From Candidatus Micrarchaeota archaeon (GTDB taxonomy: Archaea; Micrarchaeota; Micrarchaeia; Micrarchaeales; CABMGC01): a stretch of DNA of 64,000 nt. Positions within the stretch are counted from its first letter, which is position 1. Each line of letters begins with the position of its first letter. Positions 5,307 through 50,658 of the stretch are shown piece after piece. A program made the translations under genes and the position numbers. The stretch lies in NCBI GenBank assembly GCA_021848065.1, contig JAJZNA010000010.1, positions 34,586-98,585 on the forward strand. Reading direction: 5' to 3'. Under the pieces are notes generated by a model. The model searched no databases. It was not told where the DNA came from and worked only from the letters and a program-made list of their open reading frames with translations.

Positions 5307-5806
5307 AATATGTCACCCCCGAATATGACAAACTTGCTGTTTCCCGTGTCCATCAGCATATGAGACACCTCTGCCATCTGCCCGGTTGAGACAAGGTATT
5401 CCGCGCTCTCGGCAAGGGTAACCAGTATACATCGTGCCCCAAGGCTATGCGCAGATGCCAGTATTTTTCTGAGTCTTGAAAGTTCTGACTGCCTCTCCCT
5501 TGGATCCATGCGCAGCATGGCTGAGACAGGTACCAAGATAGGCTTACGGCTCTCCGCCGCCTTCCCTATTAGCTTCTTGTTGAGAATGCTATCTTCGAAT
5601 ATTATGGCCACAACGCCGGGGTCCTTGAGCGCCCTTGCCAAGTTGTTCTGGTCCTTTGAGCGAACAATAATGGGAACGCTGCTTTGTGACGGCGATGCGC
5701 TTAGGGCGATGTCCTTGCCTATGGCATATATCCTTGAGTAGCCAAGGCGGGCCTGAAGGCCCTTGTCTACATCAAAAAGCGCAACATCGAAGTATTCCAT
5801 TTTCAT
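5303..5806 (-). CDS. rnp3: RNase P protein component 3 (Rpp30 family), short form
   Basis: Start chosen at ATG 5806 (MKMEYFDVALFD...), which makes an ATGA overlap with the stop of the DHH gene. The longer tracked ORF (to 6025) would run antisense-free but inside the DHH CDS in another frame, with an Arg-rich, junk-like N-terminus. Confidence 0.6.
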   Translation of the reverse strand: MKMEYFDVALFDVDKGLQARLGYSRIYAIGKDIALSASPSQSSVPIIVRSKDQNNLARALKDPGVVAIIFEDSILNKKLIGKAAESRKPILVPVSAMLRMDPRERQSELSRLRKILASAHSLGARCILVTLAESAEYLVSTGQMAEVSHMLMDTGNSKFVIFGGDIL

Positions 5807-6783
5807 ATCCTTGATTTTATTTTGGACAAAAGATCTGACACAGCCTCCGCGGCGTGGCTGGTGTAAGGGCCGTATGCACCTGCTGCGCAGGGATGACCGC
5901 CTCCCTGGCCTTTGAGCATTAATGCAGCGTCCTTCATAAGGTCGCCTAAGTTTATGGACAGTTTGCTGTTCAATCCCGGGTACATTCGTGCAGATATAGA
6001 TGCCTCGCCGTTGCTTATGGACCAAAATACGGCTATATCAGCCCCAATGGACAGGGCCTTTTCAGCCAGGTCGTTAGGGTGCCCCGAAGCCACGCCGTAC
6101 ACGATCACATATTCGGACTGTAACTCCACAGTTGATGCAAAAAGGTCGGAGATGTGGGACTTCCGAGCATCATACGTATCACGGCGGTAGATGTCATGCA
6201 GGATACCACCGTAGTCTAATCCGGTCTTTGAAAGAAGCGCGGATATCTGACCGAAAGTAACGTGGCTGGCATTCTTTAGCTCGGCAGAATCGGCTATTAT
6301 GCCGTAAAGCAGAAGCCGCATGGCGCGTTCAGGTATGGAGAACCCCAGCCTTTCCAATACTGCATACACTATGCTTGCAGCAGAATTGAACGATTGGTCG
6401 TTGAATACCAGAGCCCTTTGCGGGATTCCGTCAGAAGGAACGTGGTGGTCTATGAACAGAAGTTCTGCAGTAGATTCCTTAATCTGCTGGCTTATGGAAC
6501 CCATTGAGCCCAGGCCATTGGTGTCTACCACTATCACAGCCTCCGCTCCGCTTATGGAGCGGTTATCCCAGAGGTCATAGCCCTGGCCCTTGAGTATGCG
6601 TGCCGCACTCCCGGATATGAAGTCGGGAACTGCGATCTTTGCGCCAGCAATATATTCCGATAAGGCAGCAGCGCTGGACACGCTGTCCAGGTCGCCTACT
6701 GCATGGAAAGTTACGGCCACCTTCCTGGACCGGTATGATTCTATAATATCGCAGAGCTTTTCGAACGTTATTTTTATGCTCAC
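5803..6783 (-). CDS. DHH/DHHA1 family phosphoesterase (NrnA/RecJ-like)
   Basis: 326 aa. Motifs: HAVGDLDSVSSA, VVDTN, IDHH and the DHHA1 motif GGGHPCAAG. Confidence 0.8.
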   Translation of the reverse strand: MSIKITFEKLCDIIESYRSRKVAVTFHAVGDLDSVSSAAALSEYIAGAKIAVPDFISGSAARILKGQGYDLWDNRSISGAEAVIVVDTNGLGSMGSISQQIKESTAELLFIDHHVPSDGIPQRALVFNDQSFNSAASIVYAVLERLGFSIPERAMRLLLYGIIADSAELKNASHVTFGQISALLSKTGLDYGGILHDIYRRDTYDARKSHISDLFASTVELQSEYVIVYGVASGHPNDLAEKALSIGADIAVFWSISNGEASISARMYPGLNSKLSINLGDLMKDAALMLKGQGGGHPCAAGAYGPYTSHAAEAVSDLLSKIKSRI

Positions 6784-12065: not shown

Positions 12066-14522
12066 CTACTGGTTGCTTGGGGCAATAGGCTCTGTCAGGG
12101 CATTGCCCTGAGGCTGCGAGGCATCCAGAAGCACAGCATCAACAACCTTTGTGCCTTGGGGCAGGTGCATGAGCCTTACTCCGCTGGCGGCTCTTCCAGT
12201 AACCCTGATGTCTTTAGTTGGGAAGGTTATGCTGACTCCCTGAGAGTTTATTATGACCACATTTGATTCGCCTGAGAGGAACAGGCACTTTTGCACAGGC
12301 CCGGTCTTCTCGTTTACCTTGAGGTTTATGACGCCGCCGCCTCCACGGCTCTGAAGCCTGTATTCGTTAACGTCGGTTATCTTGCCGTAGCCGTTCTCAG
12401 TTATGGTTAGCACACTGCCGGACTCGTTCGCGGCTATTATGTTCCTCGCCACGTCACTGTGTTTAAGCCGTATGCCCCTGACCCCGATTGCAGTCCTGCC
12501 GATATACCTCAAATCGCCCTCGTCGAACTTTATGGCTTTTCCATCCCTGGATGCCACAATCAGGTTGCGCTCGTTGGAGTACATTATCACATCTGCGATA
12601 TGGTCCCCCTCATTGAGATTTATGGCCCTTATGCCATTGGATCTAGGCCTGGAGAAGAGAGACGCCTTCACTTTCTTGACTATGCCTTTGGAGGTGAGAA
12701 ACGCCAGTTTCGAGTTTGTGAATTCGTTTATGTTGAGTATGCCGATTATCTTCTCGTCCTGCATGTCTATCAGGTTGACTATGGCCTTTCCTTCAGAGTA
12801 CCGCCCGCCTTCGGGGATGTTGTAGGCCTTTACCCAGTATGCCCTGCCAGTATTGGTTATGCCTATGATGAAGTCCTTGTTGTTGCATGTGAGGATCTGC
12901 TTAACGTAGTCTCCCTCCTTGAGGTTTATTGATATTATGCCCTTGCCGCCCCTACCCTGTTCCTTGTAGTTGCTGAGAGCCAGCTTCTTTACGTATCCGC
13001 TGCTTGTGAGGATTACGGTTACCTTCTCGTTGCTTATGGTGTCCTCATCGGTTATCTCGGACGCCTCGTCAGAATAGATTATCTGTGTTCTCCTTGGCCT
13101 GGCGTACCTCTTCTTTATGTCAGCTACCTCATCCTTTATTATCTGGTCAACAACTGCAGGTGTGGAGATGACATTTGAATAGTATTTCACTTTCTCTTCC
13201 AGCGTCTTCTTCTCGTTGGTGAGGGAGTCATTTTCCAGGTGCGTGAGCCTGCTGAGCTTCATGTCCAGTATGGCGTTTGACTGCTTCTCGGTTAGGCCGT
13301 AGCCGGACATGAGCTTGCCCCTGGCCTCGTTTGTATCGCTGCTGGACTTTATGGAGGCAATTATGGAGTCTATCTGCGTTATCGCTAGCAGAAGGCCTTC
13401 CACTATGTGCAGCCTGGCCTGGGCCACATTAAGCTCATAGCGGCTTCTCTTGAGCACCACCTCCCGCCTGTGGGTTAGGAACGTATCTATGAGCTGCACT
13501 ATATTTAGATTTTTAAGGCTCTTTCCGATTATGGCCAGGTTGATTATAGGGAACGTGACCTGCAATTGCGTATGCTTGTAGAGCATGTTAAGTATCTGCT
13601 CTCCCTCTGCGCTTTCCTTGAAGTCTACAACGATCCTTATGCCGCTCTTGTCGCTCTCATCCCTTATGTCCTTGAGGCCCACTATCTTCTTATCGCGCGC
13701 GAGCTGAGCCATCGTCTGAATTATATTCGACTTGTTGACGTTGTAAGGTATCTCGGTTATGGTTATCTTTTTGTTTTCGTCGTCTATTTCCGCTTTGGCC
13801 TTAAGGCTCATCTGGCCTCTGCCGTACAGGTATCCGTTAAATGCGTTTGGCGACATTACCGCTATCCCACCCGTTGGGAAGTCAGGACCCTTCAGCACGT
13901 TCATTATATCGCTGGCCGTGGCGTCCTTATTGTCTATCTTGAGCGTTGTGGCATCGCAGACCTCAGCAAGGTTGTGTGGAGGTATGCTTGTGGCTACCCC
14001 TACGGCTATACCTGTTGCGCCGTTTATAAGCAGATTTGGCACTTTTGATGGAAGAACTATGGGCTCCTTTTCGGTATCGTCAAAATTGGGGGCAAAGTCT
14101 ACCGTCTCCTTGTCTAGGTCCTCCAGTATCTCCTCGGAAAGGCGGGTAAGCCTTACCTCAGTGTATCTCATGGCTGCGGGCAGGTCTCCATCTATGGAAC
14201 CGAAGTTCCCCTGGCCCTCAACCAGAGTATGGTTCATTGAAAAGGTCTGGGCAAGCCTTGCGAGGGAGTCGTATATGGCTGTATCTCCGTGGGGGTGGAA
14301 TTTACCCATAACCTCTCCTACGACCCTTGCGCTTTTCTTGGTAGGCTGGTTATGGAGGTTTTTCAGGTTGTACATTGAGTACAGTATTCTCCTCTGGACC
14401 GGCTTCAGTCCGTCCCTTGCGTCAGGTATAGCCCTGCCTATTATGACGCTCATGGCATAGTCTATGTAGCTGGACTGCAGCTCATCCTCCAAAGAGACCG
14501 GTAGCAAATCTGACATAATCAC
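12066..14522 (-). CDS. gyrA: DNA gyrase subunit A
   Basis: 818 aa. DGLKPVQRRILYSM, KSARVVGEVMGKFHPHGDTAIYD, and active-site AAMRYTE. C-terminal beta-pinwheel repeats. Confidence 0.95.
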   Translation of the reverse strand: MIMSDLLPVSLEDELQSSYIDYAMSVIIGRAIPDARDGLKPVQRRILYSMYNLKNLHNQPTKKSARVVGEVMGKFHPHGDTAIYDSLARLAQTFSMNHTLVEGQGNFGSIDGDLPAAMRYTEVRLTRLSEEILEDLDKETVDFAPNFDDTEKEPIVLPSKVPNLLINGATGIAVGVATSIPPHNLAEVCDATTLKIDNKDATASDIMNVLKGPDFPTGGIAVMSPNAFNGYLYGRGQMSLKAKAEIDDENKKITITEIPYNVNKSNIIQTMAQLARDKKIVGLKDIRDESDKSGIRIVVDFKESAEGEQILNMLYKHTQLQVTFPIINLAIIGKSLKNLNIVQLIDTFLTHRREVVLKRSRYELNVAQARLHIVEGLLLAITQIDSIIASIKSSSDTNEARGKLMSGYGLTEKQSNAILDMKLSRLTHLENDSLTNEKKTLEEKVKYYSNVISTPAVVDQIIKDEVADIKKRYARPRRTQIIYSDEASEITDEDTISNEKVTVILTSSGYVKKLALSNYKEQGRGGKGIISINLKEGDYVKQILTCNNKDFIIGITNTGRAYWVKAYNIPEGGRYSEGKAIVNLIDMQDEKIIGILNINEFTNSKLAFLTSKGIVKKVKASLFSRPRSNGIRAINLNEGDHIADVIMYSNERNLIVASRDGKAIKFDEGDLRYIGRTAIGVRGIRLKHSDVARNIIAANESGSVLTITENGYGKITDVNEYRLQSRGGGGVINLKVNEKTGPVQKCLFLSGESNVVIINSQGVSITFPTKDIRVTGRAASGVRLMHLPQGTKVVDAVLLDASQPQGNALTEPIAPSNQ

Positions 14523-16429
14523 ACATCCAGGGATTTTACCTGCTCGGCATGCTCGTGCAGGAATTTCCTGCGTTGCAGCACGTCGGTTCCCATGAGGATC
14601 TTGAATAGTTCCTCTGCACGCTGGGCATCGCGTATAGTTATCTTCTTAAGTTTCCTGTTGGCGGGATTCATGGTGGTTTCCCACAACTGATCCTCATTCA
14701 TCTCCCCAAGGCCTTTGTATCTCTGCAGGCCGTCCAAATCCACAAGCTCCTTTCTTTTGGATTCCAATTCATCGTCACTGTAACAGTAATACACGTTTTT
14801 GCCTTTGGTGACCTTGTAAAGAGGAGGTATGGCAGCATATACATATCCCTGCTCTATTATCTTGCGCATGTACCTGTAAAAGAATGTGAGCAGGAGCGTC
14901 CTTATGTGGCTTCCGTCGACATCCGCATCGGTCATTATTATGATCTTTTTATAGCGGATGTTGTCTGGATTGAAGGTTTCCCTTATTCCGGTGCCGAATG
15001 CTGTTATCATGGTCTTGATCTCAGCGTTGTCGAATATCCTCTCGTCACTGGCCTTCTCCACATTGAGTATCTTGCCCCTGAGAGGAAGTATGGCCTGGAT
15101 GTTCTTGTCCCTGCCCTGCTTGCTTGAACCGCCTGCGCTGTTCCCCTCGACTATGAATAGTTCGGTCCTTTCGGGGTCGTCCAGTATGCAGTCGGCAAGC
15201 TTGCCAGGAAGCACGGTGCTGTCGAATATCGATTTCTTTCGCGCCATCTCCCTGGCCTTCCTTGCGCTCTCCCTGGCAGATGCTGCAGAAATCACTTTGC
15301 TAGCTATTGCCCGAGCCTCAGAGGGATGCTCCTCGAAGTACCTTGAAAGGAATGCGTAAGTTACTCCCTCCACGATGCTCTTTATTGTGGTGTTGCCTAG
15401 CTTTTCCTTAGTCTGGCCTTCAAACTCGGGATTCTGCATCAACACGCTGAGTACTGCAGTAAGGCCCTCCTTCGCATCTTCCCCAGTCAATTTTAGCTGG
15501 GATTTCTGGAGTTTGTTCTTTTCTATGTAACTGAGTATTGACCTTGTTACAGCTGCATGAAATCCGGAAAGATGGGTTCCGCCTTCACCGGTGCGGATAT
15601 TGTTCACGAAAGGCTCAATCTTTTCATCGTAAGAGTCCACGTACTGCATGGCGAATTCCACAATAGTGTCTCCCTCCTTCTTCTTTGCGGATATGACCCC
15701 AGACACCGGGGTGGAACCCTCATTTATGAACTTGATGAAGTCGAGTATGCCTGACTCTGATACGAATGTTTCCTCCTCATGCGCCCCGAATCGGTCATCC
15801 GAAAGGGTTATGTGAAGCCCTGGATTAAGAAATGCAGTATATCTGAGCCTTTCCTTGAGAAGCGCCGAATCGAATGTCTGTACGCTGAATACTTCCTTGT
15901 CAGGCTTGAACGTTATTGTTGTGCCTGTTTCGGAGGTGTCCCCAAGCGTCTGGAGCTGGGAAGTTGGCAGGCCCTTGGAGAAGCTCTGGCGGTAGACGTG
16001 GCCGTTTCGTCTTACAGTAACATCAGTGTAAACGGAAAGGGCATTGACCACAGTAAGGCCTACGCCGTGGAGGCCCCCTGATACCTTATATACGTCGCTA
16101 TTGAACTTTGCCCCTTTATGTATGGTGGTCATTATGACCTCAAGGGCGCTTTTGCCATACTTCTCCATCATGCCCACAGGGATGCCCCTGCCATCGTCGG
16201 TGACTTCGGCTATATCGGCATCGGGATCCTGTGTGATGTGTATGTGTATATGCTTGCAGTATCCGGCCGCAGCCTCGTCAACAGCATTATCGATGACTTC
16301 GTAGAGAAGATGCAGGACACCGGCAGCACCTGTAGAGCCTATGTACATCCCTGGCCTCTTCCGTATACCTTGAGGCCCTTCCAGGACAACAATTTTTGAA
16401 GCGTCGTAGCTATCCGAATTCGAATCCAT
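14519..16429 (-). CDS. gyrB: DNA gyrase subunit B
   Basis: 636 aa. LEGPQGIRKRPGMYIGS, GGLHGVG, Toprim motifs EGNSAGGS and PLRGKILNV, DADVDGSHI. 4-nt overlap with gyrA. Confidence 0.95.
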   Translation of the reverse strand: MDSNSDSYDASKIVVLEGPQGIRKRPGMYIGSTGAAGVLHLLYEVIDNAVDEAAAGYCKHIHIHITQDPDADIAEVTDDGRGIPVGMMEKYGKSALEVIMTTIHKGAKFNSDVYKVSGGLHGVGLTVVNALSVYTDVTVRRNGHVYRQSFSKGLPTSQLQTLGDTSETGTTITFKPDKEVFSVQTFDSALLKERLRYTAFLNPGLHITLSDDRFGAHEEETFVSESGILDFIKFINEGSTPVSGVISAKKKEGDTIVEFAMQYVDSYDEKIEPFVNNIRTGEGGTHLSGFHAAVTRSILSYIEKNKLQKSQLKLTGEDAKEGLTAVLSVLMQNPEFEGQTKEKLGNTTIKSIVEGVTYAFLSRYFEEHPSEARAIASKVISAASARESARKAREMARKKSIFDSTVLPGKLADCILDDPERTELFIVEGNSAGGSSKQGRDKNIQAILPLRGKILNVEKASDERIFDNAEIKTMITAFGTGIRETFNPDNIRYKKIIIMTDADVDGSHIRTLLLTFFYRYMRKIIEQGYVYAAIPPLYKVTKGKNVYYCYSDDELESKRKELVDLDGLQRYKGLGEMNEDQLWETTMNPANRKLKKITIRDAQRAEELFKILMGTDVLQRRKFLHEHAEQVKSLDV

Positions 16430-16613
16430 CTAAATCAGCAATAAATTAGGCATTTATCTATGCATTTAAAGGAATATAAACCTTTTTGAGAGGCTTTTAC
16501 GACGACAGATTTGGGGAGCGGAGGCTACCAAAGTATTTATAGCTTGGATGGGGAAAAATATGTAAATATACAGTCGCTTGCTGCGATTGTGGGATTTGTT
16601 TGTAAGTGATTTT

Positions 16614-17960
16614 ATGACGAAGAAAAGAGTTATAATAATCGGGGCTGCTGGGCGCGATAGGCCACTTTAGGCCCGCGGATTCCACAACTTTAACGTCTTG
16701 TTCCGCTCCGATGCCGAGTACGAAGTGGTTGCATTCACTGCAGCCCAGATACCGTATATCTCCGGGAGGGCATACCCCAAAGAGCTCAGCGGGAAGCTTT
16801 ACCCGAGGGGGGTACAGGTATATGATGAGAGCGAGCTGGGAGGCCTTATAAAACGCAAGAATGTGGACCTATGCGTGATGTCCTACAGCGACCTTAGATA
16901 TGAAGATGTGATGCATAAGGCAGGCATAGTGAACGCAGCCGGGGCCGATTTCTGGCTGATATCCCCAGACCACACCATGCTCAAATCCAGGAAGCCAGTA
17001 ATAGCGGTATGTGGGGTCAGGACAGGGGTAGGAAAGAGCCAGACTTCAAGATACGTTTCGAAATTTCTTAGGGACAGTGGATTGAAAGTTGTAGTGATAA
17101 GGCATCCTATGCCTTATGGCGTGTTGAGAAACCAGGCTGTTGAAAGATTCTCAAAACTATCGGACCTGGACAAGTATAAGACCACAATAGAGGAGCGTGA
17201 GGACTACGAACCGCACATAAAAAATGGCTTCGTGGTATATGCAGGCGTGGATTACAAGGCCATACTTGAGAAGGCAGAAGAGGAAGCTGACGTAATACTG
17301 TGGGATGGAGGAAATAATGATGCGTCATTCTACAAGCCGGATCTCCTTATAGTGGTTGCAGACCCCCTGCGTGCAGGAAATGAGCTCACGTATTACCCCG
17401 GGGAGACTGTGGCCAGGATGGCTAGTGTGCTGCTCATAAATAAGGTCAACTCAGCAAAGAAGGAGGATGTTGAAAGGGTCAAAGAAGACCTTGAGCGGAT
17501 AAACCCTAATGCGGCCATAGTGCTCGGAAACTCTGAGATATGGGCTGACAACCCGAGGATAATAAAAGGCAGCAAGGTGCTGCTGGTTGAGGACGGGCCC
17601 ACAATAACACACGGCAACATGACGTTTGGGGCCGCTACTGTTGCGGCTAGGCAGTTCGGGGCTGGGAGCGTAGTGAGTGCAAAGGAGTTTGCAGTTGGAA
17701 CAATACGCGAGACTTTCAAAAAATATCCATCACTGGATAGGGAGCTGCCCGCAATGGGCTACAGCCCGAAGCAGATAAGAGATCTAGAGGCAACTATAAA
17801 CCAGGCAGACTGCGACGTCGTGGTGTCGGCCACACCCACAGACCTCAAGCACCTGATAAGCCCGAACAAGCCAATGGTGCAGGTGCACTATGAGCTCGTG
17901 CCCATAGGCAAATCTCTGGACGCGAAGCTCAAGGCGTTTGTGAAAGGCATAAAAAGGTAA
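16614..17960 (+). CDS. COG2403-type P-loop protein (predicted GTPase / cyclic-2,3-diphosphoglycerate-synthetase-like), interrupted by a 21-nt BHB element carrying an in-frame TAG; proposed structure join(16614..16658,16680..17960)
   Basis: ATG 16614 is in the same frame as the tracked ORF 16698..17960. It encodes MTKKRVIIIGAAGRD, then [RPL*ARG], then FHNFNVLFRSDAEYEVVAFTAAQIP. P-loop is CGVRTGVGKSQTS. If unspliced, the gene is a pseudogene or an N-terminally truncated TTG-start ORF. Confidence 0.6.
16659..16679 (+). other. candidate bulge-helix-bulge (BHB) intron within an mRNA
   Basis: The strict hBHBh' fold spans 16649-16684. It has two 3-nt bulges (16657-16659 and 16678-16680) on opposite strands, separated by the 4-bp helix CGCG/CGCG. 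Predicted cuts excise exactly these 21 nt. Confidence 0.55.
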
Positions 17961-19007: not shown

Positions 19008-19198
19008 ACTAGCAACCGTTTTTAAGAGTAGGTAGAGAGCCCTAACAGACGCACAATTGATACGTTTATATATCTGAAAGAGTATATTAAAAGGCAGGTG
19101 TAACGCTGCTGCTTTGTTTGCTCCAAAGATATGACTTTGTTTTAGAGTGCCTCAAAACAGGTTTGATGTATTCATACTTAAATATATAAGTGGTTTGT

Positions 19199-24354: not shown

Positions 24355-25269
24355 ATGGCACAGCAAAACTACTTGTGGATGGATGGGAAGTTTGTAAGGT
24401 CTGTGGACGCGAAGGTGCACATACTGACGCATTCGCTCCAGTACGGGAGCGGCATATTCGAGGGCATACGGTGCTACAATACTGACAATGGCCCTGCCAT
24501 ATTCAGACTGAAGGACCATGCCAAAAGGTTTTTCAACACAGCAAAAATATACAGGATGCCTCTGAAGATCAGCATATCCGAATTGGAAGCTGCATGCATA
24601 GGCACCATAAACAAGAACCATCTCAAATCAGCATACATACGGCCGTTTGCCTTCTACAAGGAGCCGGGCATAGGGTTCAATGTGTCAGGAAAGACTACAA
24701 GCGTGGCGATAGCTGCCATAGAATTTGGTCCTCTATTCGGCGAAGGCCAGAAAGGCATAAAGTGTATGGTTTCTTCATGGAACCGCATAAACTCAACAAT
24801 ACTGCCGGCAGGGGCAAAGGCCAGCGGAAACTACATCAACTCAATACTTGCCTCACAAGAGGCAAATGCCGCAGGGTACGACGAAGCAATACTTATGTCC
24901 TCATCAGGCACAGTGGCCGAGGGCCCCGGAGAGAATATCTTCATAGTCCAGGACAATATCCTCATAACCCCACCCAAATCCGCAAACATACTGCTAGGCA
25001 TAACCCGTGACTCTATAATAAAGATCGCAGAAAACATAGGGCTGCAAGTCGTGGAAAGGGACATCAGGCGCGAAGAGCTTTACACCAGCGACGAGGCATT
25101 CTTCTCAGGCACTGCAGCAGAACTGACCCCAATCATATCGATAGACTCACGGCAGATAGCAAATGGGCGTCAGGGACCTGTTACCAAGATGCTCAGGGAC
25201 AGGTATGCTGCCATAGTAAGGGGTGAAGACAAAGAGTTCTCGAACTGGCTGACATTCACAAAAGGCTAG
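24355..25269 (+). CDS. ilvE: branched-chain amino acid aminotransferase (class IV PLP enzyme)
   Basis: 304 aa. WMDGKFV...HSLQYGSGIFEGIRCY, ASGNYINS, and GITRDSII with E...FFSGTAAE. Confidence 0.9.
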   Translation: MAQQNYLWMDGKFVRSVDAKVHILTHSLQYGSGIFEGIRCYNTDNGPAIFRLKDHAKRFFNTAKIYRMPLKISISELEAACIGTINKNHLKSAYIRPFAFYKEPGIGFNVSGKTTSVAIAAIEFGPLFGEGQKGIKCMVSSWNRINSTILPAGAKASGNYINSILASQEANAAGYDEAILMSSSGTVAEGPGENIFIVQDNILITPPKSANILLGITRDSIIKIAENIGLQVVERDIRREELYTSDEAFFSGTAAELTPIISIDSRQIANGRQGPVTKMLRDRYAAIVRGEDKEFSNWLTFTKG

Positions 25270-25933
25270 GAAGTAGGAGGAACACTGCTGAGCAAAGAGC
25301 TGCGCCCCCTATTGCGCACATGAGGTTTGAGGTGTATTTGTTTCCAATTCCTTTCTCCTCAAAATATCCGAATAAGGAGTCTACAACATTCCCAAAGACG
25401 CCTGACACTACTACAATGACGAAAATGATTACAGAGCCCCCTATTGCGAATGCCGTAAGGCCTATCAGGAAGGATGCCACTGCACCCATAAGTGTGCCAA
25501 ACCATGTAACTGCCCCTGACCTTCCCTTCCTGGCGGGCTTCATGGTCAATAGCATAATGGGTTCTCCATCAAGAACTCCGAACTCACTAGCAAACTTATC
25601 TGCTGTTATTGCGCACACACTTGCAACAAAGGCGAACACCAAAACAGTTGTAGGCACTGTGAAATATAGTGAATTGAAGAAGTATACAACCACTAGGACT
25701 ATCGGCACCAGCCCGTTTGCCATCACATTCTTCCAGCTCCTGGTCTTCTCGTATCCCTTCATGTGCATCTTGACTTCGTCCTTGGCCTTTGTTGCTATTG
25801 CAGAGAGGACTAGGAAGTCTATAAGGACTGCCATGAAGAACCACCACATATCCAGCCCGAATGCAAGTATAACTACCCCGAATATGAGTGCCACAAAAAC
25901 GCCGCTCACATTGAGCGTAAATAAAGATGCCAT
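25256..25933 (-). CDS. DUF92/TIGR00297-like integral membrane protein
   Basis: 225 aa and multi-pass. Has the TADKFASEFG motif typical of the family. Confidence 0.5.
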   Translation of the reverse strand: MASLFTLNVSGVFVALIFGVVILAFGLDMWWFFMAVLIDFLVLSAIATKAKDEVKMHMKGYEKTRSWKNVMANGLVPIVLVVVYFFNSLYFTVPTTVLVFAFVASVCAITADKFASEFGVLDGEPIMLLTMKPARKGRSGAVTWFGTLMGAVASFLIGLTAFAIGGSVIIFVIVVVSGVFGNVVDSLFGYFEEKGIGNKYTSNLMCAIGGAALCSAVFLLLPSLL

Positions 25934-34265: not shown

Positions 34266-35423
34266 ATGGTAGAGATAAAGTATGCAAACGAGCGGTTCAC
34301 CGTTACCGATCAGTCCAGCGTGGACATCCTTAGACGCGGCCATTTTGGTTCTGTTAACAAATCCAGGCTTACATTATCTCCAGAGGAAGCCCTCTATCTT
34401 ATCGATATGAGGAATGCAGAATGTTTGTCCTCTAACGGTTCAAAGCTACACTTCAATGACGTTGCCGCCAAATTCTGGAAATCTCGGAAGTTCACGGCAA
34501 GATACTTTACCTACAAGGATTGGCGGGATAGGGGGCTTATAATAAAGCCTAATTCCCTGATCCAAGGCCCATCAGAGAGCGCACATCTGAAAGAGTATCC
34601 AAAAGCAGAGCTCAATCTCGGGGCGTACAAGCTGAAGGGGGTGTTTTTCAAATCCGACCTCATCACGATCGTAGAGGGCGGGGATGATGCAAAATCCATA
34701 TACGAAAATCTCTGGCTAGGCCAGTATGGCTCTTACAAGGCTTCGGAGCGCGGGATACTCAACAAGCTCGACATCTATGAGACCATGCTTCTGCTCTCTA
34801 AGGGAAATCTTTTGCTTTCAAACGCCTCAAAGAAGGATATACTGCGGTTTGCATCCACACGAAGGAAGGACTTCCAGCAGCTCTACAGTGTATACTGTGA
34901 CTGGAGGGAGAAGGGCTACGTGATAAAGACCGGATTCAAGTTCGGCACGCATTTCAGGGTATACTTCCCAGGCGCGAAACCCGTTAAGGATGACAAATCC
35001 ACATGGACCCACTCAAAGCACGTGATACATGTATTTCCCAAGGAGTCCAAGCTGCTGATATCAGAATGGGCCAGGGTGATACGGGTTGCCCATTCGGTAA
35101 GGAAGACCTTCATTCTGGCGGTTCCGGGAGCTACAAAGGCGAGGAAGGCAAAGAACGATTATATACTATACCACAGGCGCGGCGGAGATGCCGAGAATCC
35201 CGATATTGATCCGCCAAGGTATGCCATGCTCTCGCTGAGCGAGGAGGAGTACATAGGCGGAAGCGAGCTTGCAGCAGCAATATCTGATGCCATGGGTAGG
35301 AAACTGGAGCTTATCGTGGCAATAGCCGATAGGGAGACTTCCGTAACCTACTACCACGTGCGACAGATAAGGCTCAAGGGCAGCAGCAACGAATACTACG
35401 AGATAGATTGGATGCAGCCGTGA
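34266..35423 (+). CDS. endA: tRNA-splicing endonuclease, three-unit fused architecture (partial N unit + full catalytic unit + C-terminal unit)
   Basis: 385 aa, about twice the M. jannaschii-type subunit. Catalytic unit: WREKGYVIKTGFKFGTHFRVYFPG...HSKHVIHV. Degenerate first unit: WRDRGLIIKPNS. Extra C-terminal unit: YILYHRRG...VTYYHVRQIRL. Confidence 0.8.
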   Translation: MVEIKYANERFTVTDQSSVDILRRGHFGSVNKSRLTLSPEEALYLIDMRNAECLSSNGSKLHFNDVAAKFWKSRKFTARYFTYKDWRDRGLIIKPNSLIQGPSESAHLKEYPKAELNLGAYKLKGVFFKSDLITIVEGGDDAKSIYENLWLGQYGSYKASERGILNKLDIYETMLLLSKGNLLLSNASKKDILRFASTRRKDFQQLYSVYCDWREKGYVIKTGFKFGTHFRVYFPGAKPVKDDKSTWTHSKHVIHVFPKESKLLISEWARVIRVAHSVRKTFILAVPGATKARKAKNDYILYHRRGGDAENPDIDPPRYAMLSLSEEEYIGGSELAAAISDAMGRKLELIVAIADRETSVTYYHVRQIRLKGSSNEYYEIDWMQP

Positions 35424-35809: not shown

Positions 35810-36346
35810 TCACAGCTTCTTTGGGAGGTGTATTCCTCTCTGGTTAAGGTATTCGCCTTTGTAAGCGTTGCTTACCCTGTTTAATGTGGATGCGAATATT
35901 ACGTGGGCAAACCTTACCTTTGGCCTTAGCAGTATGGGAAACCTGCTGCTGTTGAAGACTTCAAGGGTAACGTTTCCCGCAAATCCAGCATCTATGATCG
36001 TAGGAGGCATGAACAGGCCGTGTCTTGCCCATGTGCTCCTAAGTTCTACGAATCCCATCAGGGTATCCGGCAGTCCCACGATCTCATGCGTTGAGAGGAG
36101 CACCTGCTCCAGCGGCTCTATGACTATCTCCTCCTTGCCCTTCTCCACCACATACTCGTCCTTTATGCTCTCCGCATCTGAGGGGTCAATTATCTTCTTG
36201 GCATCCCTATCTTTGTTATGCCTAGCCACCTCATCTGAAAGCCTAAGGTCCACCCCGTTCTCCCTGACTATCTCCTCCTGGAATGGGTCTATAACAAGCC
36301 TCTTCTCCCTTATGAAGTTCCTGAGATCAAAATCTGACAATATCAT
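35810..36346 (-). CDS. dcd: dCTP deaminase (dUTPase superfamily)
   Basis: 178 aa. MILSD..L...I......I.P and GVDLRL, IIDAGFAGNVTLE. Confidence 0.85.
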   Translation of the reverse strand: MILSDFDLRNFIREKRLVIDPFQEEIVRENGVDLRLSDEVARHNKDRDAKKIIDPSDAESIKDEYVVEKGKEEIVIEPLEQVLLSTHEIVGLPDTLMGFVELRSTWARHGLFMPPTIIDAGFAGNVTLEVFNSSRFPILLRPKVRFAHVIFASTLNRVSNAYKGEYLNQRGIHLPKKL

Positions 36347-36366
36347 AATTCCACCTAAAGTATTAC

Positions 36367-36984
36367 TTATATGTCTATACCATTTTCCCTAAGGGCCGAG
36401 AGCACGTTTGCATGCACCTCATCTACCTCCCTCGTGCCGTCCACTCTTGCCCATTTTGTGCTGTATCCCTCATTTATCATGCGATCATAAATTGCCTTCA
36501 CATCATTCTGATACTGTGTATTCCTCTCATTCTTGTCCGTATACCCTTTCTGCCTCGCCTTCCTCTCAGCCACAAGCTCTATCGGTATGTCAAGGTATAT
36601 CGTCACTGCAGGTATGTTTACATTCATCAGGTCAACAAGCTTCTTCGCCCTCTCATAATCAAAGCCCCCAGCACACTGGTATGCTATTGTTGAGTAGAAG
36701 TACCTGTCCATTATAACCATCTTTCCCTCCTCCAGCTCCTTCCTTACCTGTATGTTGTCCTTTACCTTGTCCGCAAGGTGCAGAAGTATCTGTTCATCGA
36801 CATTGAGCATCAGGTGGCCGTGCAGGTACCTGTCTATCATCTTTCCGTAATCCGAGCTATAATCAGGGTATGTGTATATCTTGACATCGTGGCCCTTCGC
36901 AGCCAAGGCCTTGGAGAGCATCTCAGATTGGGTATGCTTGCCTGCACCGTCAACTCCCTCCACACATATTATAAGCCCGGCCAT
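36367..36984 (-). CDS. tmk: thymidylate kinase
   Basis: 205 aa. P-loop is ICVEGVDGAGKHTQ. DRY motif is MDRYFYST. Confidence 0.9.
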   Translation of the reverse strand: MAGLIICVEGVDGAGKHTQSEMLSKALAAKGHDVKIYTYPDYSSDYGKMIDRYLHGHLMLNVDEQILLHLADKVKDNIQVRKELEEGKMVIMDRYFYSTIAYQCAGGFDYERAKKLVDLMNVNIPAVTIYLDIPIELVAERKARQKGYTDKNERNTQYQNDVKAIYDRMINEGYSTKWARVDGTREVDEVHANVLSALRENGIDI

Positions 36985-44632: not shown

Positions 44633-44671
44633 ACATACATTTAAAAAGCAATAGTGCTTAATATAAGCTGC

Positions 44672-44766
44672 GGGGTCGTCTGCTAGCTTGGTTAGGCTCT
44701 GTGCTTAGGGAGCATAAGACCCGAGTTCAAAATAAGCGAATGCTTATGAAAGTCTCGGCGACCCCG
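44672..44766 (+). tRNA. tRNA-Pro with a 21-nt T-loop (59/60) intron; anticodon reads AGG at canonical positions 34-36
   Basis: Acceptor GGGGTCG/CGACCCC, anticodon arm TGTGC-TTAGGGA-GCATA, T stem CCGAG/CTCGG. The T loop TTCAAA...T is interrupted by 44732-44752. The mature length would be 74 nt. Confidence 0.8.
44732..44752 (+). other. non-canonical tRNA intron (position 59/60) in a strict hBHBh' motif
   Basis: Outer helix is the T stem. Central helix is TTCA (44726-29) / TGAA (44747-50). Bulges are AAA (44730-32) and AGT (44751-53). Inner helix is TAAGC/GCTTA with a GAAT loop. Confidence 0.75.
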
Positions 44767-44779
44767 ATCAGGTGGAAAA

Positions 44780-45409: not shown

Positions 45410-45925
45410 ATGAAACTCCAGGTTGCAGTAGACTTTCTATCCTCATACGGGATTGCCCTCGTAATAATATTCATAGCTTTCGCTGCCATATACTCTATAG
45501 CCCTGAGTCCCAACAATCCTGCAGTCTTTTGCACTCCAAATCCTGGTTTTGACTGCGCCTTTGTTTCCATAAATGCGTCTGGCGTTATGACTGCCAAGCT
45601 CTCACAGGCTACTGGAACCGAGATAACAATAAATGGAATAGCCTGCTCGTCACAGCAGAGCAGTTCCGCAGACGTCCCAGCCTTCGGCAATACTGGGGTG
45701 TCAAGTTCAATATCTTATTATCCTTCGCAATACTACCCACCTGGAAATTCTATGTACAGCGGAAGCTCGTACGTATTCAGGATGTACTGCTACTCGTCAT
45801 CTTCGGGCGTGGCTACAGGAAAGACTGGCACTCCTTTCACAGGATACATCTGGCTTAACTACACCGTACCTAACTACGGCTCTGTAGTGCAGAAAGTTGC
45901 CGTGTTCTCAACAGTATACTCCTAG
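45410..45925 (+). CDS. putative type IV pilin-like protein (class III signal peptide candidate)
   Basis: 171 aa from ATG 45410 (the tracked TTG start at 45395 adds MGPKR). N-terminus is MKLQVAVDFLSSYGIALVIIFIAFAAIY, giving Q at +1, an acidic residue at +5 and a hydrophobic helix. The rest is Ser/Tyr/Cys-rich and extracellular-like. Confidence 0.4.
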   Translation: MKLQVAVDFLSSYGIALVIIFIAFAAIYSIALSPNNPAVFCTPNPGFDCAFVSINASGVMTAKLSQATGTEITINGIACSSQQSSSADVPAFGNTGVSSSISYYPSQYYPPGNSMYSGSSYVFRMYCYSSSSGVATGKTGTPFTGYIWLNYTVPNYGSVVQKVAVFSTVYS

Positions 45926-45928
45926 GCT

Positions 45929-47452
45929 TCATTCAGCCCTGCTGAAAAGTATTTCTGGCTTTTCTACCTTGAACTCGTTTGACAACTTCTTCGCCTCCTC
46001 AAAGCTCGATGGGGTCTCGTGTATGTATCCCAGGAGCCTCTCAGCGCTTGATGGCATGTATGGATATGTGAGTATGCCCAGTATCCTGCATATGTTGGCG
46101 CATATGAAAAGTACCTTCTTAGCCTTAGCCTCATCCTCCTTGATCAGCTTCCACGGTGCGCTGTTCTGGAAGTACCTGTTGCCCAGGTTTGATATCTCAA
46201 GTATCTTGAGTAGCGCTACGTTCAGCTGTTCCGCCTCAAGCATCCTCTCAACTTCACCAACAAGGCCCGTTATCTGGCCTACCAACTCCATGTCTTCATC
46301 TCCAAGCTTCTGCTTCTCCACCTTTCCTCCCAGCTTGCTGGATATGAATGTAAGCGTGCGATTTACGAAGTTGCCCAGGTTGCCTACAAGCTCGTTGTTT
46401 ATCACGTCCTTCAACGTCCTGTCTGAGAAGTCGCCATCCTGGAATGTGGATATCTCCTTCATAAGGTAGTACCTGACAGGATCCGTGCCGTACTTTCTTA
46501 TCACGTCCATGGGATCAACTACGTTTCCTATGGATTTGGACATCTTCTCCCCCTCAACAGTTATGTATCCGTGGACAAGTATGGACCTGGGAACTTCGAA
46601 TCCTCCTGACATCAACATGGCGGGCCAGTATATGGCATGGAACCTAACAATGCCTTTTCCTATCACGTGCATGTCTATCGGCCACATCTCATTGAATGCC
46701 TTTCTGTCAGATGCAATTCCTGCTGCAGTCAGGTAGTATCCCAGCGCATCAAACCAGACGTAAAGTATCTGGGACGGATCTCCCGGTACGGGTATGCCCC
46801 ACCCGTGCGCCCTATTTACAGACCGCGACACGCTGAAATCCTCAAGCCCACTCCTCATGAAGTTGACCACCTCCGCCTTCCTGCTGCTTGGGATTATTCT
46901 TATTTCATCTTTCTCTATGGCTGCAATGAGCCTGTCCTGATATTTGGACAGCCTGAAGAAGTAATTCTCTTCCTCAACCCGCTCCGGCTTGGTGCGGTGT
47001 TCCGGGCACAATCCGCCGTCAAGTTCACCTTCAGCATAAAACAATTCGCAGCCCACGCAGTAAAGCCCGCTGTACTTCTTCTTGTATATGTCGCCGCTGG
47101 CATTGCATGCGTCCCACAGTATCTGCGTCATCTTCCAATGGTCTCCTTTCAGAGAGGTCCTCACAAAGGTGTCGTACGACATGTTTATGCTGTCTACAAG
47201 ATCCCTGAATAGGGCAGAGTTCCTTTGGCAAAGGTCCTCCGTTTTCATGCCCAGTTTCTCGGCAGATAGGGCATTCTTCAGGCTGTTCTCATCCGTTCCT
47301 GTCGCCAGGAACACATTATCTCCCTTAAGCCTCCTGTACCTGGCTATAACGTCGGCCTGGACGAACTCGAGGGCATGGCCAATATGCGGCGGAGCGTTAA
47401 CATAAGGTATTGACGTTGCTATATAGAACTTAGGCAAGGATACACCTGGCAA
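45929..47452 (-). CDS. metG: methionyl-tRNA synthetase (core enzyme, no C-terminal tRNA-binding appendix)
   Basis: 507 aa. PYVNAPPHIGH (HIGH motif), KMSKS, and a CxxC knuckle (CVGC...CPEH). Confidence 0.95.
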   Translation of the reverse strand: MPGVSLPKFYIATSIPYVNAPPHIGHALEFVQADVIARYRRLKGDNVFLATGTDENSLKNALSAEKLGMKTEDLCQRNSALFRDLVDSINMSYDTFVRTSLKGDHWKMTQILWDACNASGDIYKKKYSGLYCVGCELFYAEGELDGGLCPEHRTKPERVEEENYFFRLSKYQDRLIAAIEKDEIRIIPSSRKAEVVNFMRSGLEDFSVSRSVNRAHGWGIPVPGDPSQILYVWFDALGYYLTAAGIASDRKAFNEMWPIDMHVIGKGIVRFHAIYWPAMLMSGGFEVPRSILVHGYITVEGEKMSKSIGNVVDPMDVIRKYGTDPVRYYLMKEISTFQDGDFSDRTLKDVINNELVGNLGNFVNRTLTFISSKLGGKVEKQKLGDEDMELVGQITGLVGEVERMLEAEQLNVALLKILEISNLGNRYFQNSAPWKLIKEDEAKAKKVLFICANICRILGILTYPYMPSSAERLLGYIHETPSSFEEAKKLSNEFKVEKPEILFSRAE

Positions 47453-47540: not shown

Positions 47541-49604
47541 ATGGATGCCATAACTGCCGAAGCGATTTCAAGCAAGATAAATGACTTCCTTAATGCGTAC
47601 TACGAGGATCAGGTCAACGAACTATTCATAAGCTATCCGAAAAGGCGAAGCCTTCTGGTTGACCTTAAGGACCTGGAGAAGTTCGATATTGATCTTGCAA
47701 ATGAATTCCTGGAGAACCCAGACTCTATCGTACCCATAGCCAACAAGACCCTCTCCAGGCGAAATCCCAATCCTGACGCCGATACACCAGTACACATGCG
47801 CCTTTTCGGGTCAGACGCAAACATGCCATTGATACAGGACGTTGGGTCCGAATACATAGGCAGACTGCTTACTCTGGACTCCCTCGTGGTAAAGCGTTCA
47901 GAGATAATACCGCGTGTGCACCTAGCAAAATACCGTTGCACCTTCTGTGGCACGACCCTCGAGCTTCGCGTAGAGCAGGATGAGCCGATGGACATCTGCC
48001 CCCAGTGCAAACGCAGGTCACTCAAGCAGATAACCAACGAGTCGAAGTTCATCAACATGCAGCGCATAGCCGTGCAGGACCCGCTGGAGAGGCTAAAGGG
48101 AAGCACCCCAACATGGCACCTAGAGGTCATACTTGATGACGATCTGGTGAACACCATCATACCTGGTGACAGGGTGGACATCACCGGAATCCTGCGCATA
48201 CGGCCCAGAAAGACCCCGCACGGCAAGGAGGACAAGATACTTTTCACCCCATATCTGGACGCACTCACGCTCAAGCCGAAGCAGAAGGAGTTTGCCGAGT
48301 TGGAGATAACGCAGGAGGAAGAAGAGGCCATAAAGGAGATGTCAAAGGATCCTGTAATATTCGACAAAATAGCCAAGTCAATCGCTCCGTCAATATATGG
48401 CCACGACGAGATAAAGCAAGCCCTCGCCCTGCAGCTTTTCGGAGGGACTCCGGACAAGAAGCTCATCGACGGGGGAAAGATAAGGGCCGACATGCACATA
48501 CTGCTTATAGGGGATCCCGGAAGCGCAAAGACCAGGCTGCTTCAGGCCGTCACCACACTGGTACCTAAGGGCATATACGTAAGCGGCAAGTCAACGACCT
48601 CAGCAGGTCTTACAGCGTCTGCCGAAAGGGACGAATTCTCCGAAGGCGGGTGGACGCTTAAGGCTGGCGCCCTAGTCCTGGGATCAGGAGGGCAGGTCAG
48701 CATCGACGAATTCGACAAGATAGGGGACGAGGACAAGTCGTCCCTTCTAGAAGCCCTCGAGTCCCAGACAATAAGCGTGGCAAAGGCAGGAATAGTGGCA
48801 AAGTTCCAGGCCAAGGCATCAGTTCTAGCTGCGGCAAACCCCAAATACGGGCGGTTCGACAAGAATGCATACCCTGCCGACCAGTTTGATATACCTCCAG
48901 CCCTGCTCTCAAGGTTCGATCTAATATTTCCAATTCCCGACGTCCTTGACGAAGAACAGGACACGCGCATAGCAAAGCACATACTCACCCAGCACGAGGC
49001 TGCCGGAGCAGTTGTGTCAGGTGCAAATGACGTAGAGAACATACAGGCCCCTCCACTGGACTCCGAAGTACTAAGGAAGTACATAGCCTATGCGAAGAAG
49101 AACGTCAAGCCAAGGCTATCCCCTGAGGCAAGCAAGATAATATCCGATTATTATATCGGCCTGAGGAAGCTAGGAATCAAGCAGGGGGCTACGCCCATAA
49201 CTCCAAGGCAGATAGAAGGCCTTGTAAGGATAGCCGAAGCCTCGGCCAAATCAAGACTTTCAGAAAACATAATACTTAGGGACGCCGAGATAGCTGTATC
49301 ACTTTTTGAATTCATGTTCAAGACCCTTGCCGTAGACAGCAGCGGAAGGAGGGACATAGACATGCTTATGACGGGGGTGCCTAAGGAGAAGGTAAACCAG
49401 ATAAACTCCATAATCGCCCTGATAAAGAAGATTGATGACGATACCGGCGCCGGTGCGCCAATAGTCACCGTACTGGACGAGGCAGAGAAGCAGGGGATAA
49501 GCAGGGACAAGACGACAAAGTTCATCAACGAGCTCGAAAGGAGCGGTGACATCTACTCCCCGAAAGCAGGCATATTAAAAATTGTGAGGCGCGAAGAAGA
49601 ATAA
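47541..49604 (+). CDS. mcm: MCM replicative helicase
   Basis: 687 aa. Zn motif is CTFCG...CPQC. Walker A is GDPGSAKT. Walker B is IDEFDK. Arginine finger is SRFDL. Has a C-terminal wHTH. Confidence 0.95.
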   Translation: MDAITAEAISSKINDFLNAYYEDQVNELFISYPKRRSLLVDLKDLEKFDIDLANEFLENPDSIVPIANKTLSRRNPNPDADTPVHMRLFGSDANMPLIQDVGSEYIGRLLTLDSLVVKRSEIIPRVHLAKYRCTFCGTTLELRVEQDEPMDICPQCKRRSLKQITNESKFINMQRIAVQDPLERLKGSTPTWHLEVILDDDLVNTIIPGDRVDITGILRIRPRKTPHGKEDKILFTPYLDALTLKPKQKEFAELEITQEEEEAIKEMSKDPVIFDKIAKSIAPSIYGHDEIKQALALQLFGGTPDKKLIDGGKIRADMHILLIGDPGSAKTRLLQAVTTLVPKGIYVSGKSTTSAGLTASAERDEFSEGGWTLKAGALVLGSGGQVSIDEFDKIGDEDKSSLLEALESQTISVAKAGIVAKFQAKASVLAAANPKYGRFDKNAYPADQFDIPPALLSRFDLIFPIPDVLDEEQDTRIAKHILTQHEAAGAVVSGANDVENIQAPPLDSEVLRKYIAYAKKNVKPRLSPEASKIISDYYIGLRKLGIKQGATPITPRQIEGLVRIAEASAKSRLSENIILRDAEIAVSLFEFMFKTLAVDSSGRRDIDMLMTGVPKEKVNQINSIIALIKKIDDDTGAGAPIVTVLDEAEKQGISRDKTTKFINELERSGDIYSPKAGILKIVRREEE

Positions 49605-49770: not shown

Positions 49771-50658
49771 ATGTACCTGCTTTACATAATCGTATTCTCA
49801 GCAGCTATAATAATCGTATTCAGATTCATAAAAGGCAACATACTGTTCGTATTGCTGGAAGCCTTCGTGGTTCTCTTTGCAACGGCATTTTTGCTGTTCA
49901 TAGTGCTGGCAACAGCGCTTCCTGCAGTTAACTACCTATACATCGCGCTGTTCTCGGCCCTAGTGGCAATTGCCCTCATAGTGGCCAAGAACTACAGGCC
50001 CAAGCTGAGGAATCTTATAGCCATAACCTCCAGCATTGGTGTGGGCGTGGTCATAGGCCTGAACGGCTTCAACGTCGCATACCTTCTGATGATGTTCATA
50101 GCCGTATACGATTACATAGCCGTATTCGTGACAAAGCACATGATAACCCTTGCCAGAGAGGTATCCTCCCGCAATCTTGCATTCCTTATAGGTTCAAGCG
50201 ACATAGAGGCCATACCAAAGAAATACACAACGCAGAAAGACAGGGCGGACTTCAGGAAGAGCGTTGACATAAAGTCAGTGAAGGACCCCGTACTTAAGAA
50301 GCTGATTTCATCCGGTGCCATACCAATAGTATCACAGGTGCAGCTTGGCACTGGGGACCTTGCCCTGCCGCTCATGCTCACTGTAAGCGCCTACATAAGC
50401 TTCATCAACTACGCCATACCAGTCATGATAATACTCGGCTCCATCTCGGGCCTTGTGTTCACAATGTACTTGTTGAAGCGCTATAAGGTGGCGCTTCCGG
50501 CAATACCTCCTCTCTTTGCATTCATAAACCTCTTCCTAGGCCTGGCCTTCCTACTGGTGAAGACTTCGCAGACATGGCTGTGGGCCGGCTTCCTTGCCAT
50601 AGCTGCGGCTACACTTGCTGTGCTCATGTCAAAGCTTAGGCGGCTCGCGTCGCAATGA
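49771..50658 (+). CDS. presenilin / signal-peptide-peptidase-like intramembrane aspartyl protease (A22 family); true N-terminus probably lies upstream
   Basis: Motifs: YDYIAVF (first catalytic Asp), LGTGDLALP (GxGD) and PAIPPL (PAL-like). The same frame is open from 49588 and encodes a TM1-like helix, but holds no ATG/GTG/TTG before 49771. Confidence 0.75.
   Translation: MYLLYIIVFSAAIIIVFRFIKGNILFVLLEAFVVLFATAFLLFIVLATALPAVNYLYIALFSALVAIALIVAKNYRPKLRNLIAITSSIGVGVVIGLNGFNVAYLLMMFIAVYDYIAVFVTKHMITLAREVSSRNLAFLIGSSDIEAIPKKYTTQKDRADFRKSVDIKSVKDPVLKKLISSGAIPIVSQVQLGTGDLALPLMLTVSAYISFINYAIPVMIILGSISGLVFTMYLLKRYKVALPAIPPLFAFINLFLGLAFLLVKTSQTWLWAGFLAIAAATLAVLMSKLRRLASQ

Follow-up and report, generated by a model that had tools for sequence, protein, structure and literature searches.

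The window analysed here is a stretch of 64,000 nucleotides (nt) from Candidatus Micrarchaeota archaeon (assembly GCA_021848065.1, contig JAJZNA010000010.1, positions 34,586-98,585, forward strand). It contains a gene at 16614..17960 that is very likely intact and interrupted by a predicted 21-nt archaeal intron of the bulge-helix-bulge (BHB) type. The open reading frame (ORF) 16698..17960 shares its frame with the ATG at 16614. Translation from this ATG gives MTKKRVIIIGAAGRD-RPL*ARG-FHNFN, continues in the same frame as FHNFNVLFR, and ends at the stop codon 17958-17960. The seven codons of the insert are agg cca ctt TAG gcc cgc gga (16659-16679). When the sequence was re-read, the coordinates that the first-pass annotation had given for the ATG, the ORF, the TAG, the helices, the bulges, the loop and the product of 441 amino acids (aa) were all found to be correct. 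The features of the gene, all on the plus strand, are as follows.

16606..16610, plus strand: Shine-Dalgarno-like GTGAT, 3 nt 5' of ATG 16614; from direct reading, weak and inferential
16614..16658, plus strand: exon 1, 15 codons, MTKKRVIIIGAAGRD; beta-1 strand, glycine-rich loop and start of helix 1 (from the sequence and homologues)
16659..16679, plus strand: predicted BHB intron, 21 nt, phase 0, A GGCC ACTTTA GGCC CGCG GA (from the motif and homologues)
16668..16670, plus strand: in-frame TAG within the predicted intron (from translation)
16649..16684, plus strand: hBHBh' motif (the BHB with its flanking helices), 12 pairs (from motif scans)
16649-52 with 16681-84, plus strand: outer helix, tggg with tcca, 3 Watson-Crick pairs and 1 G.U
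16653-56 with 16674-77, plus strand: central helix, CGCG with CGCG
16657-59 and 16678-80, plus strand: the 3-nt bulges, ata and gat
16660-63 with 16670-73, plus strand: inner helix, GGCC with GGCC, closed by the 6-nt loop acttta (16664-69)
16680..17960, plus strand: exon 2, 426 codons and the stop, beginning FHNFNVLFR, COG2403 family (from homology)

The archaeal Shine-Dalgarno consensus is GGUGAU, and GTGAT at 16606..16610 agrees with it at 5 nt; by direct reading, the alternative starts TTG 16698 and GTG 16725 have no similar motif in front of them. If each bulge is cut 3' of its second nucleotide, 16659-16679 is lost, the exons are joined as ...GAT|TTC... and the 441-aa ORF results. When the 21-nt deletion is moved by 1-2 bases in either direction the junction reads RDI, REF or RGF, and RDF is obtained from the exact deletion only. 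No second copy of the insert was found in the window, where it is single-copy, and the idea of a repeated element was dropped.

The spliced 441-aa protein is a member of the widespread COG2403 family, for which the source labels are 'predicted GTPase' or 'cyclic 2,3-diphosphoglycerate synthase'. The solved cyclic 2,3-diphosphoglycerate (cDPG) synthetase 9sxb is only a distant match, and the protein passes no NCBIfam cut-off. Its closest intron-less relatives are Micrarchaeota proteins with 77-79% identity. The motif GxxG[RK]DF is uninterrupted in 116 of the 120 best hits (GRDY in two), and GxxG[RK]D[FY] is uninterrupted in 314 of the 322 family-length proteins collected. Of the eight exceptions, P0337 is an unrelated neighbour protein and the other seven are insert-carrying genes annotated in truncated form; a 7-residue insertion at the junction was seen in none of the 322. 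The contiguity of homologues at GRD-FHN, which the first-pass annotation had expected, is borne out by these 314 proteins. The junction predicted from the RNA structure and the junction defined by homology agree exactly, in that the deletion of 16659-16679 gives GAAGRDFHNFN. In the AlphaFold model of P0002, an intron-less protein of 78% identity (mean predicted local distance difference test score, pLDDT, 90.8), strand 1 comprises residues 4-10 and helix 1 residues 13-23. On this model the junction D15|F16 would lie at the start of helix 1, directly after the glycine-rich turn, and a product started at 16698 or 16725 would be devoid of both strand 1 and helix 1. The predicted spliced protein would have the N-terminal peptide MTKKRVIIIGAAGRDFHNFN and would also yield the peptide VIIIGAAGRDFHNFNVLFR.

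The public gene calls at all carrier loci are N-terminally short, with 411, 417 or 420 aa vs 437-441 aa (entries P0001, P0121, P0122, P0123 and P0319-P0321; starts at 16698 and 16725 in the window gene). The short calls are a systematic annotation error, as gene callers halt at the intron TAG.

The identical 21 nt are present in the NCBI assembly GCA_027332045.1, in the ENA assemblies ERZ27237460, ERZ27237444 and ERZ27237285, and in contigs that Logan assembled from four different runs. The organism is also present in the samples behind SRR13221994, SRR13221996, SRR13190158 and SRR22746133. An assembly artefact, which had been named earlier as one way in which the insert might prove spurious, is ruled out by the recovery of the same 21 nt in separate NCBI and ENA assemblies and from no fewer than four distinct sequencing runs. 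The locus L083 (GCA_964561405.1) is 92.3% identical to the window at the nucleotide level over 4.3 kb and has kept the insert. Between 16574 and 16753 the two differ at 3 positions, all of them in the 21-nt intron: C16663T, which converts a C-G pair to U.G, and two changes in the loop.

More distant carriers were found in a scan of JGI metagenomes for GGNGCNGCNGGNMGNGAY, any 21 nt and TTYCANNNNTTYAAY, which left the insert sequence unconstrained and fixed its length at 21 nt. Two loci, L090 and L091, were recovered, and both inserts fold as the same BHB in the same register; the shared length of 21 nt is partly an ascertainment effect, because the scan fixed it. The L090 insert is A GACC TTCCTA GGTC CGCG AA (1242-1262) and lies 3' of MYRENVIIMGAAGRD. 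Its neighbours encode Alba and an Rpb6-type RNA polymerase subunit, and L090 is therefore archaeal. The L091 insert is T AGCC GTTTCA GGCT CGCG AA (3463-3443, minus strand) and lies 3' of VKRKKVVIMGAAGRD. In the L091 cluster there are also two identical copies (L092 and L093) and the variant L094 with T AGCT GTTCTG GGCT CGCG AA, which differs from L091 by a C-to-U change that keeps a G.U pair and by changes in the loop. The exon 2 frames of L090 and L091 are open over the full available length, and the start codon and the 15 conserved codons of exon 1 are kept in the three carrier lineages. The carrier proteins of these lineages are 51-56% identical to each other, and the intron-less homologues of each are 65-79% identical to it. 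Among the protein-space neighbours of L090 and L091, those with names belong to Bathyarchaeia, Thermoproteota and Odinarchaeota; clusters of neighbour proteins gave no taxonomic name for the L091 lineage. A scan of the genome collection with the spliced protein yielded intron-less loci only (80 of 80 among the matches listed), because the peptide patterns used span the junction.

Covariation was examined in the five distinct inserts (window, L083, L090, L091 and L094; alignment A4). Standard pairs fill 59 of 60 cells, vs 20-52% in controls with slid 3' partners. No change is seen in the central helix, and the 6-nt loop varies at almost all of its positions. The inner helix, the sole helix made wholly of intron nucleotides and hence free of coding constraint, has two pairs in which G-C is replaced by A-U on both sides, and one in which C-G is replaced by U.G; both compensatory changes fall in this helix. 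The outer pair adjoining the central helix varies between G.U and A-U. The sequences suggest that RNA structure rather than sequence is conserved among the inserts, the direction being consistent at modest power. Related loci, both orthologous and of the paralogous lineages, retain the insert with helix-preserving and compensatory changes, in agreement with what the first-pass annotation had proposed to look for.

Comparison of exon 2 between the window and L083 gave 60 synonymous vs 12 nonsynonymous codon differences, which shows the gene to be under strong purifying selection. At four-fold sites of exon 2 44 of 195 differ (22.6%). Over the 45 nt of exon 1 there are 0 differences, for which the chance under neutrality is about 1e-5 by our own arithmetic. 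Among the 80 intron-less loci listed, 19 use CGC as the arginine codon, and 6 have the complete BHB-compatible context GGR CGC GAY TTC CA. All three carrier lineages have this BHB-compatible exon context (chance about 4e-4, likewise our own arithmetic), a pattern that fits either selection for the helices or an insertion-site preference. The in-frame stop is TAG in five of five intron variants, never TAA or TGA; the window, L083 and L090 have it as the fourth codon of the insert, L091 and L094 as the first. Given about four structurally free codons, each independent lineage would have a stop by chance with a probability of about 0.18. The intron stop may be selected, to block the production of an aberrant full-length protein from unspliced mRNA.

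The presumed cutting enzyme and a tRNA with an intron of equal size are encoded in the same window.

34266..35423, plus strand: EndA, three-unit (epsilon-2 type) tRNA/RNA splicing endonuclease, presumed cutter (Pfam tRNA_int_endo, 3.4e-29)
44671..44767, plus strand: tRNA-Pro(AGG), interrupted at position 59/60 by a strict-BHB intron of 21 nt, 44732-44752 (ARAGORN after in-silico removal)

The EndA protein matches the ARMAN-2 EndA structure 4fz2 over residues 6-385 (E = 1.3e-151). Together with the Pfam tRNA_int_endo domains this match bears out the three-unit EndA that had been assigned to 34266..35423 from the sequence. The tRNA with a 21-nt intron and the same cutting register, also proposed there, was recovered as well: ARAGORN calls tRNA-Pro(AGG) once 44732-44752 is excised, and ARAGORN (with and without intron mode) and Rfam miss it unless these positions are removed. 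For the register of cutting, this tRNA provides an internal control. An A34 anticodon is unusual for Archaea. The archaeal splicing endonuclease recognises BHB motifs irrespective of RNA context. The epsilon-2 EndA of ARMAN-2 has a broad specificity and cleaves strict as well as relaxed BHB motifs, and the tRNA genes of ARMAN-2 are heavily disrupted by introns, position 59/60 included (PMC3239211).

The predicted intron is based on the anatomy of the motif, the exact junction, the covariation in five variants from three lineages, the purifying selection on both exons, the EndA and the tRNA intron of the same size. In the proposed pathway a pre-mRNA would be transcribed from upstream of ATG 16614, and 16649-16684 would fold into a helix, a 3-nt bulge, a 4-bp helix, a 3-nt bulge and a helix. 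EndA (34266..35423) would then cut between the second and third nucleotides of each bulge and free 16659-16679, and an RNA ligase of the RtcB type would join the exons and probably circularise the intron. Translation of the spliced mRNA (...GAAGRD|FHNFN...) would give the full 441-aa COG2403-family protein, and unspliced mRNA would stop at the intron TAG after 18 codons. We infer cleavage and ligation in vivo, as well as the identity of the ligase.

Several observations weigh against this reading. With 12 pairs, no more than one G.U and an intron of 12-60 nt required, a strict scan of the window on both strands found 5 BHB motifs vs a mean of 2.85 over 20 dinucleotide-preserving shuffles, and a looser scan found 144. 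The BHB motif by itself is no rarer than chance, and motif counting was dropped as evidence. At a single specified site and length, a strict BHB is expected with a probability of about 5e-7 (own arithmetic from the strict scan); the weight of the evidence arises because the strict BHB coincides with an independently defined insertion, not from the motif alone. The BHB fold has an energy of -14.5 kcal/mol vs -18.4 kcal/mol for a minimum-energy competing imperfect hairpin (z = -1.16 for the region). The minimum-energy fold also misses the BHB of the bona fide tRNA intron at 44732-44752, and because this true intron is missed too, the folding energy is uninformative, neither for nor against. The covariation score is matched by shuffle controls in 15 of 500 trials, with five sequences and modest power. 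No RtcB was present among seven large ORFs scanned in the window, which at 64 kb is a small part of the genome. The presence of EndA in the L091 lineage is assumed; the L090 and L091 contigs are short. The closest homologues (77-79%, Micrarchaeota) are without the intron and the carriers are mutually 51-56% identical, so that the distribution calls for many losses or for repeated gain at one site, neither with a demonstrated mechanism. The predicted intron is known here from DNA sequence alone.

The competing hairpin spans 16641-16683, with GGGGCUGC (16641-48) paired to 16675-83, and its predicted stability exceeds that of the BHB by 3.9 kcal/mol. The hairpin could rival or gate recognition by the endonuclease.

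An N-terminally truncated or decaying gene would have suffered a disabling insertion and would start at TTG 16698 or GTG 16725, exon 1 being a dead remnant or a 5' leader. Gene callers do annotate such products of 411 aa and 420 aa (P0001, P0121, P0122), the insert has an in-frame TAG and the closest relatives are without it. We nevertheless regard this as very improbable, since the start and 15 codons of exon 1 are kept in three lineages and exon 1 shows 0 of 45 changes despite the four-fold divergence of 22.6%. The truncated product would, on the structural model, be without helix 1 and strand 1, the motif is retained in every one of the 314 intact family members, and no Shine-Dalgarno-like motif precedes 16698 or 16725. 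A random disabling insertion is also not expected to recur at one codon junction with covarying helices. Comparably small is the probability that the BHB site is cut and not productively re-ligated, leading to destruction or down-regulation of the mRNA or to release of a small RNA. EndA recognises the BHB irrespective of context, and the one non-tRNA, non-rRNA substrate of Haloferax is an element of the 5' untranslated region (UTR) that affects expression (PMC7714728). The predicted cuts, however, sit exactly where joining restores the motif in phase 0, and the coding capacity of exon 1 is conserved in all carriers. The products of archaeal BHB cleavage are normally ligated by RtcB, which likewise counts against cutting without ligation.

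Two translational explanations leave the 21 nt in the message. Read-through or recoding of the TAG would extend the protein to 448 aa, the 7 inserted residues lying in the region of the glycine-rich loop, and is in keeping with an in-frame insert whose length is a multiple of 3 and with the use of TAG specifically in every variant. It is given a slimmer chance still. The TAG is the fourth codon of the insert in three variants and the first in two, the insert peptides differ (RPL*ARG, RLL*ARG, RPS*VRE, *PFQARE and *LFWARE), and the changes keep the RNA pairing rather than the peptide. Insertion at this site is tolerated in 0 of 314 homologues; the site would lie, by the model, at the start of helix 1 beside a loop of the nucleotide-binding type. 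No pyrrolysine machinery was seen in the window, where the sole match to the PylS C-terminal domain is weak and sub-threshold and comes from a histidyl-tRNA synthetase ORF. Translational bypassing of the type known from T4 gene 60, with take-off at the aspartate codon and landing downstream, is scarcely credible. The stop and the stable hairpin close after a possible take-off codon do superficially resemble gene 60, but the only matching downstream GAT (16678-80) is not in the FHNFN frame, and a ribosome landing on it would read S-T-T.... In L090 the take-off position is GAC and there is no matching landing codon, and bypassing predicts neither the 3-4-3 bulge geometry nor the covariation.

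The predicted BHB intron occurs at the same site in one DPANN lineage and in two TACK-like lineages, and closer relatives of each are without it. As the carriers form no group by similarity, the intron is either old with many losses or has entered repeatedly at one site. That the mini-intron is no passive relic, and is either site-specifically mobile or functionally maintained, is put forward tentatively and as the less likely possibility. Repeated gain at a CGCG-containing target may proceed by reverse splicing through EndA and RtcB, followed by reverse transcription or recombination; short-patch lateral transfer may be an alternative route. Alternatively, the intron may be kept for a role such as splicing-gated expression, by analogy with HAC1/XBP1, and the invariant in-frame UAG could be a fail-safe against translation of the unspliced message.

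The cbf5 intron of Crenarchaeota, of 16-44 bp, is the sole BHB intron confirmed within a coding sequence in the literature searched, up to 2026 (PMC2738675, PMC7714728), which agrees with the first-pass statement that cbf5 was the one protein-coding case. Introns in other protein-coding genes have been predicted and are unconfirmed (PMC2738675). In Haloferax volcanii a BHB intron in the 5' UTR of the HVO_1309 mRNA was verified in vivo and in vitro (PMC7714728). No discussion of mRNA substrates was found in the literature on the ARMAN-2 enzyme, and no report of such introns was found in the DPANN/Micrarchaeota literature.

As in cbf5, which encodes an RNA pseudouridine synthase (Watanabe 2002; Yokobori 2009, PMC2738675), a short BHB-type intron, here of 21 nt, lies in the coding sequence, is too short for a homing enzyme and breaks a functionally essential motif, so that its removal is needed. 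Both genes are mis-annotated by callers, both have a patchy phylogenetic distribution implying gain and loss, and in both the endonuclease is of broad specificity. In contrast to cbf5, the host gene encodes a COG2403 'predicted GTPase / cDPG-synthase-like' protein, and the hosts are Micrarchaeota (DPANN) and two lineages in which the host protein is nearest to Bathyarchaeia/Thermoproteota. The endonuclease is of the epsilon-2 type here vs (alpha-beta)2, the motif is a strict 3-4-3 hBHBh' vs the often relaxed motifs of cbf5, and an in-frame TAG is present in every variant. Splicing of cbf5 was shown experimentally, whereas the intron of the COG2403 gene is so far a reading of sequence. The predicted intron would act like the cbf5 intron but falls outside the cbf5 intron family, as the host gene differs.

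HVO_1309 also has an mRNA, rather than a tRNA or rRNA, as the substrate of the splicing endonuclease through a BHB, as is predicted here; its element, however, is in the untranslated leader and does not interrupt a reading frame. The non-canonical tRNA introns of ARMAN-2/Micrarchaeum (PMC3239211) share the genome type, the epsilon-2 EndA family and the mini-intron anatomy, but the host RNA here is a messenger, and there is no sequence similarity between the mRNA and tRNA-Pro introns of the window. HAC1/XBP1 provide a further analogy, in that a very short mRNA intron (26 nt in XBP1) is lost by a protein-only, spliceosome-independent route that changes the protein made, the exons being joined by a tRNA ligase (RtcB in animals). 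Their introns, in contrast, are cut by IRE1 at paired hairpins with 7-nt loops, not at a BHB, and regulation is known for them.

The COG2403 gene is very probably the second protein-coding gene family known to need BHB splicing. If so, a second, unrelated gene family with a BHB intron would be found in DPANN archaea that use an epsilon-2 endonuclease, and protein-only mRNA splicing in Archaea would be more than a one-gene curiosity. The ARMAN-2-type enzyme was already purified and crystallised, and a candidate natural non-tRNA substrate is now at hand. Annotation pipelines shorten such genes systematically, and seven database entries are wrong for that reason. Since distant lineages share the insertion site, the question of BHB intron gain becomes directly testable.

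Other candidates were rejected. In viral contigs the relaxed pattern CGCGAY N9-39 CGCGRATTYCANNNNTTYAAY matched L095-L098 (IMG/VR), four copies of one GC-rich phage sequence that is unrelated to the COG2403 gene and does not represent carriers; these false matches show that the exon 1 glycine-loop codons are needed for search specificity. Further CDS (coding sequence) intron candidates in the window were, among others, 19167-19193, 45664-45684 (minus strand), 5321-5355 (minus), 50070-50111 (minus) and 25244-25282, along with 52276-52343, 48411-48432 (minus) and 36288-36373 (minus). They were dropped on account of AT-rich spacers, uninterrupted ORFs, a position antisense to a likely gene, or fusion with a neighbouring gene. 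Further strict BHB-like motifs are located at 25778-25821 (plus), 47342-47399 (minus) and 6277-6304 (minus), inside uninterrupted ORFs or ambiguous overlaps; these three are probably due to chance, as their count fits the shuffle expectation. The DNA gyrase A and B genes (12066-16429, minus strand) lie upstream of the intron-containing gene and are divergent from it. The gene order gyrA, gyrB, COG2403 gene, pterin-binding protein, TFE-alpha, GINS and L44e is common to L001, L083 and L084.

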